Origin: Dictyostelium discoideum
Taxonomy: Eukaryota
DNA length: 64,000 bases
Assembly (NCBI GenBank): GCA_000004695.1
Contig: CM000154.2
Span: 4,800,001 to 4,864,000 of the forward strand
Direction of reading: 5' to 3'
Shown here: piece by piece, positions 22,800-60,870 of the stretch
Layout of the letters: every line of letters begins with the position of its first letter
How positions within the stretch are numbered: position 1 is the stretch's first letter
Notes under the pieces: model-generated
What the model was told of the DNA's origin: nothing
Database searches by the model: none
The model's input: only the letters and a program-made list of their open reading frames with translations
Position numbers and translations under genes: made by a program

Positions 22800-27065
<4,266 letters not shown>

Positions 27066-27306: not shown

Positions 27307-27853
27307 TTTTAACCTAAGAAATTGAATACAACAAGGTGAAGAATTAAATTGCATAAAAGATAATCAGTGAATGCTCTTTCAATTGAAATGGTTTTACCAA
27401 AATTGTTAATTGGATTAATTTGAATTCTTAAACATACTATAATTGATAATTTTAAATATTGAATAAAATTGATTGTTTTTTAAAATATAAAAAAAAGGGT
27501 ATTAATATTTGGTATTATCATTATTATAATTCATTATTAATTATTAATTATTTATAATATTAGGGGTGAGTGGTGGAGGAGGAGGGAAATTATTTTTTTT
27601 AAAAAAAAAAAACTTTACCTGTTAAAACAAAACAACCAACAGTTGAAATGAAAGCAGCTAAAAATGAATTGAATGGGTAGGTACCAACCAAACAACAATA
27701 TGTGAATACAATTACACCAGTAATGAAAGTATATATAAGGAAAAGATCAATAATCTTTAATTTTTGTGGAGTCTTTGAATAACTCTCAAAAAATGATTTA
27801 ACAATTGATGTAAATGTAAGATTATTTGATGATGTTGATGCTGTTGTTGACAT
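27307..27853 (-). CDS. dad1: DAD1/OST2 (oligosaccharyltransferase subunit, defender against cell death 1); 2 exons (27619-27853, 27307-27435)
   Basis: Exon 1 ..[59 protein letters not shown] matches the DAD1 core (..[58 protein letters not shown]). The donor is acag|gtaaag and the intron is 27436-27618. Exon 2 encodes [42 protein letters not shown], the conserved DAD1 C-terminus. It is convergent with xdh, with stops 241 bp apart. Confidence 0.9.
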
Positions 27854-27919
27854 TTTTTATTTTTTTTTCTTTCTCTGTGGTCTAAATAAAATTATATCTT
27901 GATGATCACAAATTAATTT

Positions 27920-27953
<34 letters not shown>

Positions 27954-28283
27954 AAAAAAAAAAAAAAAAATTAAAAAAAAAATTTTTTGAAAAAAAAAAA
28001 AAAAAAATGAAAATGGAATTGATTAGCAAAACGATTGAATATCTTTACTTTTTATTTTTTATTTTCTGGGCTTTTTTTTTTTTTTCTAAAAATTTGTTTC
28101 CAATTCAAAAAAAGTATCCTAATAAATAATAATAATAATAATAATAATAATTTTTTTTTTTTTTAATTTAAATTTGTAATTGTTTTATTTGTTTTGTGAT
28201 ACAATATTTATTTATTTAGTTTCTTTTTGTTCCTTTCCAACTTTCTTGAATGAATTTCTATATTGGTCATATTTTTCTGTTCA

Positions 28284-28459
28284 ATTTAGTACCATCAATA
28301 TCTCACCTTCACTTTTAGTTGGTTGCAACCAACTAAAAGTGAACTACAGATTATTCTACCAATACCTCACCTTCCTTTTTAGTTGGTTGGTATTGGCAGA
28401 ATAATATGATGTTAACGCACCAACTAAAAATGAAGGTGAGATGTTGATGGTACTAATTT
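28284..28459. repeat. Nested inverted-repeat / foldback element (~176 bp) with ~38-bp terminal inverted repeats and three copies of the ctcaccttc(a/c)ctttttagttgg motif in alternating orientation; MITE- or thug-like
   Basis: Left arm 28288-28322 (agtaccatcaatatctcaccttcacttttagttgg) and right arm 28421-28455 (ccaactaaaaatgaaggtgagatgttgatggtact) are reverse complements with 2 mismatches. There is an internal perfect hairpin cacttttagttgg-ttgcaa-ccaactaaaagtg. A second internal pair is attctaccaata/tattggcagaat. Confidence 0.55.
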
Positions 28460-28737
28460 GAGGGGGGTTTATTTTTGAAATTATTATTCTTTTTTAATTG
28501 GGCAATTATTTATTTTTTGTTTTTTATTTTCTATTATTTATTATTTTTTATTTTTTTATTTTTTATTATTTATTATTTTTTTATTTTTTTTTTTGAATTA
28601 TTATTCTTTATTTAATTAGTAACTGTTTGCTTATATTTTTTAATTTTTAATTTAATTATTTAGTGTTTCTTGTTTAAATTCTTTTCTTTTTTTTATTTTT
28701 TAATCTTTTTTAATTATAGAGGGTTTTTTTTTTTTCT

Positions 28738-28803
28738 GTAGTGATTCTTGATTTAATAAAACATCATTGGTTGAAAATTCAAAATTATTGACTGACAACA
28801 TAT
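28738..28803 (-). pseudogene. 5' relic of a TRAF-like gene (first 22 codons: [22 protein letters not shown]) truncated into a poly-A run
   Basis: The minus-strand translation matches the conserved N-terminus of the TRAF-like paralogs (MSI..[20 protein letters not shown]). No downstream RING-encoding sequence is present. Confidence 0.5.
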
Positions 28804-29080
28804 TTAATAATATTTTTGATTTTAAAGATTATTCTAATTAAATAAATAATGAAAAAAGTAGGTATTTTTTTTTTATTAAATTGAATAGGTGTAGAGATAT
28901 GAAAAATAAATTATAATTAAATTTCCAAAAAAAAACCATCATTTATTCTTCATGATGGTTTAAAAAAATAGGGATAAGACACAAATAAATGGGAAAATTT
29001 TTTAAAAAAAAACTTAAAAAAAATCAGAAAAAAAATATTTAAATAAAAAAAATTGAAGTTCTTTAGATAACTTGGAAGTT

Positions 29081-29284
29081 ATGGGAATTCAAAATACTGA
29101 ACAAGCAAATACTCAAAATAATGTTTCAAAACGTTTAGAATTTCAAAATCGTGAATTAATCATTGAACAATTAAATCAAGCAATTCGTCTTTTATCGAAA
29201 GATCAACGTGCTCTTAATGTTTTAAAAACTGAAGTTGAACATCAAATTAAAGAAAAAGAAGAAAGAATTAAACAATATATATAA
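29081..29284 (+). CDS. Small (67 aa) coiled-coil protein, hypothetical
   Basis: Compact ORF with coding-like composition between homopolymer-rich intergenic DNA. The track start at 29072 is TTG and the first ATG is at 29081. No family recognised. Confidence 0.4.
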   Translation: MGIQNTEQANTQNNVSKRLEFQNRELIIEQLNQAIRLLSKDQRALNVLKTEVEHQIKEKEERIKQYI

Positions 29285-29774: not shown

Positions 29775-30788
29775 ATGGATCCAGAATCATTTGGTTTAGA
29801 TAAAACAGCTATTGAAATTTGTAATAGCTATATGCCAGTATTAGATATTGAACCAAGATTAATTAGAGAAGGTTTTAAATCATTATATGATAATCAAAAG
29901 AAACATATTAGTAAAACCAAACAATATCAATTAAATAAAGAGAATGGTGATAGTTTAATGGATGTTCATTTCTTTTATCCAAATGGTTATGAACAAAATC
30001 CAGTCGACCATAAATATAAAGCAATATTTTATATTCACGGTGGTGGTTTTATGGTTGACGGTATTAAAAAATTACCAAGAGAAATTAGTGATAGAACAAA
30101 TTCAATTTTAATTTATCCAGATTATGGATTAACACCAGAGTTTAAATATCCATTAGGTTTAAAACAATGCTACCAATTATTCACAGATATAATGAATGGC
30201 AATTTCAACCCATTCAATGATTTAATCAATGATTCAATTTCAATAGTTGGTGAGAGTTCAGGTGGAAATTTCGCACTTTCTCTACCATTAATGTTAAAAT
30301 TAAATAATTCAACATTTTTTAAGAAAATTTCAAAAGTTTTAGTATACTATCCAATTACCGATTGCAATTTTGAAACACCATCCTATAATAGATTCTCAGA
30401 GAAATTCTATTTAACAAAGGAAGGTATGAAATGGTGTTGGAATCATTATACAAATAATGATTCCGATAGGGATGAAATCACTTGTTGTCCATTGAAAGCC
30501 ACAATCGATCAACTAAAAGATTTTCCAGAAACTTTGGTTATCACTGCTGAAACCGATGTCTTAAGTTCTGAAGGTGAACAATTTGGTTTAAAATTATCAA
30601 ATGCAAATGTTAAAGTTTCAGTTTTAAGAATTTTAAAAACAATTCATGGTTTCGTTTCACTTGACCAAACAAATGATAGTATCGCTTGTAGAGTTGGTAT
30701 GGATTTATCGATGAACTTTTTAAATAATATCTCAAATAATTCAATTATTAATGAAAATAATAATAAAACTTTATTAAAATTACTTTAA
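29775..30788 (+). CDS. Alpha/beta-hydrolase fold-3 esterase/lipase (arylacetamide deacetylase / hormone-sensitive-lipase-like)
   Basis: The HGGGF oxyanion-hole motif (..IFYIHGGGFMV..) and the GxSxG nucleophile elbow (..IVGESSGGNFA..) are at the spacing typical of Abhydrolase_3. It is a single exon. Confidence 0.85.
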   Translation: MDPESFGLDKTAIEICNSYMPVLDIEPRLIREGFKSLYDNQKKHISKTKQYQLNKENGDSLMDVHFFYPNGYEQNPVDHKYKAIFYIHGGGFMVDGIKKLPREISDRTNSILIYPDYGLTPEFKYPLGLKQCYQLFTDIMNGNFNPFNDLINDSISIVGESSGGNFALSLPLMLKLNNSTFFKKISKVLVYYPITDCNFETPSYNRFSEKFYLTKEGMKWCWNHYTNNDSDRDEITCCPLKATIDQLKDFPETLVITAETDVLSSEGEQFGLKLSNANVKVSVLRILKTIHGFVSLDQTNDSIACRVGMDLSMNFLNNISNNSIINENNNKTLLKLL

Positions 30789-30914
30789 AAAATAAATAAA
30801 TAAATAAAAATATATATTTTAAAATAAATAAATTTTTATATATAATACAATGATATTACTTGTTTATTTAAATAAAAGTGATAATATTTTAAATAATTAT
30901 AATAATTATTATTA

Positions 30915-31640
30915 TTTAATTTGTTATTGTACCAGTTCTCCATTCATTATTAATACATGGACTACCACCACGATCTCTGCCATAATAGTCATAAGTGTTT
31001 CTATTGCATTGAGAATCAGTACTACATGGTACTTTAACTGAGCATTCGATTGGTTTATGATAACAACCATATAACATTGAGCAAAAATCAGCTGTACAAG
31101 GGTCTTTATTTAAAATTAAATTTTAATGTTAGAAAAAATAATTTAAAATATTAAATTTAAAATTCTTAATTAAAAATTCTTACTATTATCATCACAATTC
31201 ATTGGAGTTATATTCACATCCTTTTTCACCACAAGTATCAAGTGTACATGCATCATAATCTGAACAACGAGTTTCATAATGATAACAATATCCACGGAAA
31301 TCACAAAAATCAACTGTACAAGATCTGGTTTTGTTTTTTTAAATTTATTTTTATTTTTATAAATAATTAATAAATAATTAATAATTTAGAAAAAAAATTT
31401 TAAATTTTAATAATAAAAATAAATTTACATACTATTATCGTTTCATTTTTGTTCACATGATTGAGTTGGTTCTGGTGGATTTACTGGTGCGTTGACACAA
31501 CCATATGGACCACAACTACAATTGTATTATTATTTCCATCATTACAAGTATCAGCAATTTGATAACAACTTCTAGTATTTTCATCACAATGATTGGTATG
31601 ACAAATATCAACATTACTTTTTGGGCATATATATATTTAC
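30915..31640 (-). CDS. Cys-rich repeat (CxxDFC..GCYH..C) extracellular-type protein gene; several small exons; frame disruptions suggest a pseudogene or an unresolved model
   Basis: Minus-strand translations give ..CPKSNVDICHTNHCDENTRSCYQIADTCNDGNNNT(frameshift)NCSCGPYGCVNAPVNPPEPTQSCEQK (31440-31640), ..RSCTVDFCDFRGYCYHYETRCSDYDACTLDTCGEKGCEYNSNEL* (31195-31325), and a terminal ..DPCTADFCSMLYGCYHKPIECSVKVPCSTDSQCNRNTYDYYGRDRGGSPCINNEWRTGTITN* ending at 30915. The repeats resemble Dictyostelium extracellular Cys-rich modules. I could not splice the exons into one clean frame. Confidence 0.35.
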
Positions 31641-31989
31641 TCGTTTCAAAACAACTAAACATTGGAGAACAAACAAAAATTTTACAATTTGTATTCTTAA
31701 ACTCTTTTTTCTTTTAATTTTTTGAAAATTTTAAATTATCTTTATTGATAATCAAAAAATAAAAAATTAACAAATTATTTTTTTTCTTGGATTTTTATTC
31801 TTATTTTTTTTTAAGTCTTTTCCCTTGTGTTTTTTTTTTTTTCTTTTGGAGATTTAAAAAAATAAGAGTATTATTATGCATTTTAAAATTATTATTGATT
31901 ATCATTAAAAAATTACTTAATTGTTTTTTTTATTGAATTTTTTTTTTTTTTTAAAAAAAGTTAAATTTTATTTTTTAGGATGTCAATGG

Positions 31990-32721
31990 TTGAATTTGAT
32001 TTATAATTTTAACATAAATTTCAGTTGCTAATTAATTTACATGATTTGAATATATTGACAATCGTTATCTATATGTTTTTCGATATCTTCCCTTTTAATT
32101 TTCATTTGACAACCTTTTAACAATCAATTTCATATTTTGGGCATTCAGTAAGATGATTTTTTACTTGATTCTTTGTGATAGATTTCATACAAAATGAACA
32201 TACTTTCAATTTATAACCATTGATATTCATGTTCTTGTAATGATTTTAATCTAACAATTTTATCACACCCTTTATATGAACATGGCACAAGTTTAAATTT
32301 ACAATTTTGTATATGACTATCTAATAGATCTACAGTTTTAATATCTTTACAGCCATTAATTTGATCTTATACTAATTTTTTTTTTAGATTTTCATCAAAA
32401 ACAATTTCCACTTAAAGTTGTGTAAGTGTAAGAATAAATACAAAAACATTCTTCTTTACTAAAAAACTGTTCAATTACTAAACATCTTGATAAATCATTG
32501 ATTAAATTTACTTTAATTCTACAAATCATACATTCTTTTTTATTTTTTAATGATGTTTCCCAACATCCTTGACATGCGAAATGGCCAGATTTACATTGAT
32601 AAATTGATTTCTTGTAAATAAATTCACAACAAATTGGACATGAATATTTATTATTATTTTGTAATGATTCTTGATTTAATAAAAAATCATTGATTGTAAA
32701 TTTGATATCAATTATTGACAT
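31990..32721 (-). pseudogene. TRAF-like pseudogene (RING + zinc-finger region present, multiple frameshifts, no MATH domain)
   Basis: ORF 32395-32721 encodes [85 protein letters not shown].. and then breaks frame. Recognisable zinc-finger homology continues in other frames to ~31990 (for example ..[20 protein letters not shown]..) with stops. Confidence 0.65.
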
Positions 32722-60114: not shown

Positions 60115-60870
60115 TAGCGATTTGATTAACGATGGTTTAGTTGGTAAAGTTGGTCGTATTGAATAAGATGAAATACTTGGCTTTATTGCATATGGTTGTT
60201 TTGGAATTTCAGTTATCTTTGGTGAGGCACTGGTTGTAGTTACAGTTGTGGTTATAGGATTATTTGAAGGTATAGGATTTTCAAATTTAATAAAAGAAAG
60301 ACTATTCTTTTTTTCATCTTCATTATGAGTTTTAATTGTTTCGCTTCTTTCTTTTTCTTTGGTGGTGATACTATCATTTTGATCATTATTATTATTATTA
60401 TTACTACCACCACTACTGGCTATAATACTATAGTTTAAACCATCAAAAAAATCCTCATCTAATTGATTGTCATCTTCTATAGTTTTAGTGCCACTGTCAA
60501 TACCACTATTATTATTATTGTTATTATTATTGGTATTGGTAGTAGTAGTTGTGGTAGTAGTTGTAGTGGTTAACTTTTTCGTTTGTTGATCTTCGCTATC
60601 AACTCTTAGTTTTTTATTTTCATCGACGCCTTTGACTTGATGTCCAGCAAAAGTATTACTTTCTAATAAATCATAAATATCGTCAGGGTCACTTTCAAAT
60701 TCATTTAATCTTTTTCTTTTAGAAGTTTGATTATTATTATTATTATTATTATTATCATTATTGTTGTTATTGTCATCACTCTTTTGAACCTCTTCCATTA
60801 AATTTTGAATATTTTCAAAGTCTGACATTTCTTCATCTTGTTGTTTCTCTTGTTGTTGTTTCTCTTTCTC

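Follow-up and report, generated by a model that had tools for sequence, protein, structure and literature searches.

The window, by which we mean the whole 64-kb stretch of Dictyostelium discoideum DNA analysed here (AX4 in the strain comparisons below), holds the open reading frame of xanthine dehydrogenase (xdh; 23679-27065, plus strand), which flanks dad1. The dad1 gene lies on the minus strand with its ATG at 27853, and an esterase-like gene follows on the plus strand (29775-30788). These two genes are divergently oriented and bound a spacer of 1.9 kb, and inside it lies an inverted-repeat unit at 28281-28461 that can fold into a long hairpin. The dad1 ATG is 428 nt away, and the first-pass annotation was correct in placing the unit upstream of dad1. 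The unit is 181 nt long and has 34% GC, compared with 14.5% in both of its intergenic flanks. In an independent D. discoideum assembly (L001), where the chromosome is 5.29 Mb long, the locus is at about 4.96 Mb, and the element there is identical. On the far side of the spacer, the reference region 29775-32721 contains the esterase-like gene, a CTDC-domain gene and a Sina_RING fragment.

The unit begins and ends with two outer arms of 43 nt each (left, 28281-28323; right, 28419-28461), which are 93% complementary with three mismatches. Terminal inverted repeats, which are a feature of MITEs and foldback elements, are therefore present; they had been described as about 38 bp with two mismatches, and while the arms are real, their actual extent is longer. 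Inside the left half is a perfect palindrome of 36 nt (28308-28343), 18 nt on either side of a centre between TTG and CAA, with no spacer. It had been seen as a 15-bp hairpin around a ttgcaa loop, which recognised the hairpin and missed its full length. A second nested pair, also noticed before, is found as an inner stem of two 28-nt arms (28339-28366 and 28389-28416), which are 82% complementary in the window and nearly perfect in two other strains, L007 and L008. Both the nested inverted-repeat anatomy and the potential to form a cruciform or hairpin thus hold.

A 21-nt motif with the consensus CTCACCTTCNNTTTTAGTTGG is repeated along the unit. It occurs exactly three times in the 64-kb window, where no occurrence is expected by chance. 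Copy 1 is at 28302-28322 (plus strand, CTCACCTTCACTTTTAGTTGG), copy 2 at 28366-28386 (plus strand, CTCACCTTCCTTTTTAGTTGG), where it makes up the apical loop of the long hairpin, and copy 3 at 28420-28440 (minus strand, as reverse complement, CTCACCTTCATTTTTAGTTGG). A partial minus-strand copy is found at 28328-28343, so the real order is plus, partial minus, plus, minus. The earlier count of three copies stands; their orientation, given there as alternating, does not alternate strictly, and the motif string as typed there has one extra T and no match. Why is there a third copy in the loop of the hairpin? Segments 28296-28325 and 28360-28389 form a direct repeat with 90% identity, and this repeat explains it. 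Around the loop, an apical block of 41 nt (28355-28395) has 39/41 positions invariant in AX4, L008 and the D. cf. discoideum genome L005.

How stable is this structure? RNA folding of both strands, which had been recommended as a check, gives very stable structures of about -92 kcal/mol. The minimum free energy is -92.5 kcal/mol for the plus strand and -91.7 kcal/mol for the minus strand, compared with about -38 kcal/mol for shuffled sequences (z about -14). As DNA the unit folds at -53 kcal/mol (z = -11.6). Among 1596 sliding 200-nt windows over the 64 kb, the hairpin ranks first with -87 kcal/mol, and the next independent fold has -57 kcal/mol. This second fold, at 60361-60600, comes from complementary trinucleotide-repeat runs (ATT/ACC versus GGT/AGT) in a region that is apparently coding, and not from a discrete hairpin gene.

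Is the hairpin also present in related genomes? Syntenic loci were collected through the DAD1 protein cluster. Besides L001, they come from D. discoideum strains (L006-L008), D. cf. discoideum (L005), D. citrinum (L004 and L010), D. firmibasis (L003), D. dimigraforme (L009) and D. purpureum (L002). Four of these loci have the hairpin at an unchanged position upstream of dad1. It is 100% identical in L001 and about 84% identical in L007 and L008; L005 has it in a partial, more altered form. The orthologous hairpins of L007/L008 fold at -94 and -99.5 kcal/mol, and that of L005 at -72.5 kcal/mol. Per nucleotide, the window hairpin has an energy of -0.46 kcal/mol/nt, and those of L007/L008 have -0.49 to -0.54 kcal/mol/nt. 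The hairpin is missing along with all of its spacer in L006, D. citrinum, D. firmibasis, D. dimigraforme and D. purpureum. All that L003, L004, L006 and L010 have in common with the window here is the dad1-proximal part of the promoter, about 125-160 nt, and similarity of this promoter is not detectable in L009 and L002. In the hairpin-free genomes, TRAF/MATH-type or other genes stand in place of the spacer. Logan contigs that contain dad1 exon 1 stop short of the hairpin.

The third-position distance in xdh gives a scale for these comparisons. Measured from AX4, it is 5.8-6.3% for L008/L007, 7.9% for L005, 9.0% for L006, about 20% for D. citrinum and about 28% for D. firmibasis. These distances put L005 outside the group of AX4 and L007/L008. 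The hairpin thus predates the split between AX4 and L005. Note that L006 is without the hairpin although it is about as distant as L005.

Some further observations concern the neighbourhood of dad1. In the loci L003-L010, the region about 1-5 kb upstream of dad1 is rearranged among very close relatives, and dad1 and xdh remain syntenic. Its contents vary and include TRAF/MATH genes, kinase-like genes and, in L009, other unannotated genes. In the window, 28698-28792 (minus strand) is what remains of a decayed TRAF-type gene at its 5' end, and the translation resembles the beginning of the TRAF genes that L006, D. citrinum and D. firmibasis have directly upstream of dad1. The hairpin occupies the place of the TRAF gene body yet shares no similarity with the TRAF gene. 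The DAD1 protein itself has 117 aa in D. cf. discoideum, where exon 1 has a 9-nt gap (L005:5001-5547), 173 aa in the D. dimigraforme annotation (L009:5001-6215) and 120 aa elsewhere.

The orthologues differ in structure as well as in sequence. In L007/L008 the unit forms a single uninterrupted stem of about 73 bp, and its apical region contains the middle motif copy. When the window is compared with L008, the changes are strongly clustered: the left half has 0/13, 1/27 and 1/21 substitutions, and the right half has 7/19 and 7/26 together with a 3-nt indel. The left outer arm is nearly unchanged between AX4 and L007/L008 (1/27 in the motif and 1/21 in the distal part). The distal part of the right arm (28441-28461) has 7 substitutions and the 3-nt indel relative to L007/L008, and L005 differs from the window there at 10/19 positions. 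This part is a near-exact reverse complement of 28281-28301, from which we infer that it probably arose by a template switch or by copying from arm to arm. Since it matches the L008-type state of the left arm, the copy is older than one later point change.

The same type of change is found at two other places. The segment GCAACCAACTAAAAG (28325-28339) is specific to the window lineage, being found in none of L005, L007 and L008; it replaces an ACA of L007/L008 with a net gain of 12 nt. It is the exact reverse complement of the adjoining 28312-28326 and creates the perfect palindrome. In L007, an insertion of GG makes an arm the exact complement of the other, by which ten base pairs are perfected and the fold becomes better by 5.5 kcal/mol. 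L005 is without the window-specific events, and this fixes their polarity. It has changes of its own. One is a 28-nt insertion that includes a partial copy of the motif, the fourth in the unit; besides this, two base pairs have changed on both sides of the stem (UA to AU and AU to GC), and pairing is kept there. In all three mapped events (GCAACCAACTAAAAG, the right distal arm and the GG of L007), a lineage-specific cluster is the reverse complement of nearby sequence, L005 serves as outgroup for the polarity, and pairing is raised. The events were read from four genomes by comparison. Read in this manner, the reverse-complement changes look like the signature of replication template switching or of arm-to-arm conversion. 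Template-switch mutations in replication have been reported to create and maintain RNA hairpins and to give rise to new miRNAs (Monttinen & Loytynoja PMC8794818; Monttinen et al. PMC10710096), and template-switch expansion of inverted repeats has been described in yeast promoters, as in the GRE2 case (PMC13100816).

Could the unit be a mobile element? It had been labelled a MITE-like or foldback element of the thug type. MITEs and foldback elements are shorter than 200 bp, with long terminal inverted repeats and no coding capacity, and the hairpin unit is like them in all these respects. The scenario would be that a non-autonomous DNA transposon (MITE or foldback, possibly related to thug) was inserted in the ancestor of the D. 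discoideum complex and then decayed in place. Its small size and long terminal inverted repeats agree with this, and so do the compositionally foreign island of 34% GC in 14.5% GC DNA and the fact that no similarity is detectable to the surroundings or to the relatives' TRAF genes at the site. However, the flanks TTTTCTGT and GGGGGGTT exclude a target-site duplication, as no direct repeat of 2-10 nt is seen at or near the ends. No second copy exists in the 64-kb window or in the ten related loci of 9-12.5 kb (about 100 kb), and multicopy status appears unlikely from these sequences. The first-pass annotation had itself said that a unique occurrence with no target-site duplication and no transcription would leave just a local palindrome; the duplication is indeed missing, and uniqueness holds within the 64 kb and about 100 kb only. 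Nor is there a precise empty site in any strain, for the genomes without the hairpin (L003, L004, L006, L009 and L010) are without the whole spacer. In four genomes the element has been passed on at a single syntenic position and has changed its structure there, and local duplications explain its internal architecture.

Comparison with described families points in the same direction. MITEs are not among the D. discoideum DNA transposon families listed (PMC5633606), and the dad1-locus hairpin differs from MITEs and foldback elements in having no target-site duplication, no copy family found and an orthologous evolution in place. The thug-S repeat (Avesson 2012; Meier 2016, PMC4894637) is similar in being a Dictyostelium sequence with a hairpin able to yield small RNAs. 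It differs in having an intron and in being multicopy, with six mapped miRNA copies on chromosomes 2, 3 and 5 (PMC4894637), compared with a single copy of the dad1-locus element in the 64 kb and about 100 kb. The thug-S miRNA pair (miRNA_can_D3 5p/3p, PMC4894637), the only thug segment compared, is not in the window at up to 3 mismatches. Thus the mobile-element label is not supported, and we regard the insertion scenario as very improbable; that the hairpin is home-grown and non-mobile is reasonably probable in our judgement. Wider scans with the 21-mer gave 16 single matches in metagenomes and 9 in prokaryote genomes, none beyond 24 nt, and these matches of 21-24 nt are due to chance. Three metagenome contigs of about 33% GC have the same 24-nt match to the motif region (L018:3761-3784, L019:579-602 and L029:2145-2168), which may be one conserved gene of an unrelated organism; the match has no extension and no hairpin.

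Then how did the hairpin come into being? Our preferred reading, with a rough probability of 0.55, is that it is a young, single-locus long inverted repeat that was grown and re-homogenised in place, and that may now be a proto-miRNA or hairpin-RNA locus. First, a unit of about 35 nt would have been directly duplicated (28296-28325 and 28360-28389). Second, the downstream part would have been copied in inverted orientation, giving one long hairpin with the middle motif in its loop, the form that L007 and L008 have kept. Third, each lineage would have remodelled the hairpin by short template switches or arm-to-arm copying during replication, in which one arm is overwritten with the reverse complement of the other and the stem is extended or repaired. 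The perfect 36-nt palindrome and the nearly perfect right arm tip would be due to two such events in the window lineage.

There is a further question, whether such a hairpin gives rise to small RNAs. The first-pass annotation had allowed equally for a structured RNA, which is the more interesting option. Were the spacer transcribed, its RNA would form a stem of about -92 kcal/mol (-0.46 kcal/mol/nt), comparable in size and energy with known Dictyostelium pre-miRNAs. It might then be a substrate for the DrnB/RbdB Dicer complex and be cut into 21-nt RNAs, most likely from the conserved motif arms, and an output of this kind would make the locus a proto-miRNA or hairpin-RNA locus. [quoted passage not shown] A DrnB-dependent miRNA gene would further show at least 10 reads for each of mir-5p and mir-3p, with precise 5' ends and a 3' overhang, and loss in drnB-/rbdB- cells. 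Accepted Dictyostelium miRNAs have -0.51 to -0.73 kcal/mol/nt and precursors of 105-179 nt (PMC6161686 Table S1). For example, ddi-mir-1183 has 129-179 nt and -88.5 kcal/mol, and dfi-mir-1191 has 169 nt and -95.3 kcal/mol. Nearly all amoebozoan miRNAs are reported to be recent innovations (PMC11014262).

A candidate start site is also present. About 100 nt upstream of the hairpin on the plus strand, a T15 tract is followed by AATTTAAATTTG (28150-28177). This T-rich tract, which ends in TTTG, resembles the start-site motif (a T-rich tract ending in G) tabulated for 14 pri-miRNAs (PMC6161686 Table S3), and it is a possible promoter or start site of the Dictyostelium pri-miRNA type. Tracts of this kind are very common in the genome. 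The T-tract region at 28154-28176 is perfectly conserved in AX4, L008 and L005. As to the strand, the G:U pairs (10 vs 5) and the energies, 3-6 kcal/mol apart, lean slightly to the dad1 strand, and the T-tract leans to the other. Another type of promoter signal is the DUSE of Dictyostelium Class I RNAs and snRNAs, which we take to have the consensus [AT]CCCA[CT]AA about 60 nt upstream of the start. No DUSE was found near the hairpin; the closest match is at 29079-29086 (minus strand), about 620 nt off, and the total in the window is below chance expectation. That DUSE-like sequence, TCCCATAA, lies about 120 nt upstream of a different feature, a small perfect hairpin at 28933-28965 (AAACCATCAT...ATGATGGTTT) that is followed by a T run on the minus strand and resembles an intrinsic terminator.

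Is the hairpin a known RNA? Rfam 15 gives no match in the window at the gathering score, and at relaxed thresholds it gives only generic miRNA-hairpin matches of 21-25 bits, compared with thresholds of 75-100. The arm sequences are not in the miRNA tables of Liao 2018 (PMC6161686, S1 and S3) and Meier 2016 (PMC4894637, Table 2 and S4), nor in the supplements of Edelbroek 2024 (PMC11014262), nor in the published full texts searched. The remaining ddi-miRNAs are in Avesson 2012, which leaves a small chance that the hairpin is a known miRNA. Among individual candidates, miRNA_can_D2, which is also located near the right end of chromosome 5, and miRNA_can_D3 of thug-S were rejected, neither being in the window. 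A coding origin of the arms was rejected as well. The motif copies read ...QPTK[SKN]EGE[IVM]L.. and then a stop in one frame, and this frame is preceded by a stop codon; no source gene was found in the window or the loci, and there is no similarity to the relatives' TRAF genes. The hairpin is covered by a 74-aa ORF, and no protein is on record for this ORF or for versions of it with other start sites. Elsewhere, a tRNA scan found no tRNA or tmRNA gene in the whole 64-kb window, and a weak SNORD24-like Rfam match at 27800-27861 (plus strand; 22 bits vs a gathering score of 41, E = 1.3) overlaps the dad1 coding start and is probably due to chance. Taken on the sequences, real production of small RNAs from the hairpin is a tentative proposal that we hold to be rather doubtful.

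Instead of an RNA gene in the making, the hairpin might be a functionless local palindrome, a by-product of template switching and duplication in a fast-rearranging AT-rich spacer, which is young, kept matched by conversion and makes no processed transcript. We take this to be a serious possibility of lower probability than the preferred reading. It would agree with the absence of the hairpin from Rfam and the miRNA lists compared, and with a spacer upstream of dad1 that is wholly different in close relatives. It would also agree with the erosion seen in L005, where the fold has come to -72.5 kcal/mol with the 28-nt insertion. Covariation is not significant either: 93% of the cells are paired, with 2 double-sided changes, a level reached by 65/500 shuffles. 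As regards conservation, identity of the spacer with its relatives is about 65-70%, and the apical block 28355-28395 is as conserved as the dad1 core promoter. When this block was considered as a sign of constraint, it had 2 variable sites compared with 4-5 expected at a neutral rate of 6-9%, which is not significant and stays within neutral expectation. With a neutral divergence of only 6-9%, no selection is needed for the stem and the apical block to have been retained. On the other side, the three motif copies and the T-tract flank are among the best-conserved complex sequence of the spacer, which speaks against a functionless origin. The same is true of the three mapped events, all of which improve pairing, though conversion alone could do so; the arms of a palindrome can stay matched by conversion alone.

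The hairpin lies between divergent genes, in a promoter spacer of 1.9 kb and at 428 nt from the dad1 ATG, and this position brings up regulation in cis. In such a module, the thrice-repeated motif would consist of binding sites of a dimeric factor for dad1 and/or the esterase-like gene, and the palindrome would come from template-switch expansion of inverted repeats, for which yeast promoters give a precedent (PMC13100816). The motif copies being the best-conserved parts would suit binding sites. But L006, D. citrinum and D. firmibasis do not have the element at all, and yet their dad1 is conserved and presumably expressed; no known Dictyostelium factor motif was identified, and a stem of more than 70 pairs far exceeds what a binding site needs. 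We consider both the module and this route to it highly improbable.

We return to the preferred reading of an inverted repeat grown and re-homogenised in place. In its boldest form, a hairpin-RNA or miRNA gene would be in the course of being born: a palindrome built by template switching, transcribed from the conserved T-tract promoter and diced by DrnB to 21-nt RNAs that stem from the thrice-repeated motif. The natural strains would then represent successive stages, with the long stem in L007/L008, the split stem and palindrome in AX4, and an eroding form in L005. We put forward this birth, and this ordering of the strains, as an unlikely though attractive extension of what the genomes contain. 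Why would it matter? To our knowledge, the mechanism by which amoebozoan miRNA hairpins originate is not known. If the hairpin is expressed, it would offer a dated, strain-resolved series in which a Dicer substrate is built by template switching, and this in a genetically tractable organism; strains with different versions of the hairpin could be directly compared. If it is silent, it would show clearly how palindromes can grow and mend themselves where the genome is very AT-rich, and would warn against classing small inverted-repeat units as MITEs from structure alone.

Finally, the hairpin can be set beside known systems. It resembles the Dictyostelium pre-miRNA hairpins processed by DrnB/RbdB, such as ddi-mir-1183 and dfi-mir-1191, in being intergenic, about 180 nt long and folded at -0.46 kcal/mol/nt, in being limited to very close relatives, and in having upstream a T-rich tract ending in G, of a kind that is very common in the genome. 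It differs in that those hairpins are known by reads and by their dependence on DrnB, while this one is known from sequence and is not in the lists compared. Its loop holds a third copy of the arm motif, unlike theirs, and in L007/L008 the stem exceeds typical miRNA stems in both length and perfection and comes closer to a siRNA-type hairpin. The yeast GRE2 case (PMC13100816) is alike in that a promoter spacer holds an imperfect inverted repeat and that the arms of this repeat become longer and are homogenised; the arms at the dad1 locus are much longer and are not known to be linked to a transcription factor. The template-switch hairpins of PMC8794818 and PMC10710096 are from rRNA and from primate miRNAs with expression data, whereas the present case is amoebozoan and comes from four genome sequences. 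What they have in common is that lineage-specific changes and an insertion are exact reverse complements of their neighbours, that pairing is gained in a single step, and that an outgroup gives the polarity.
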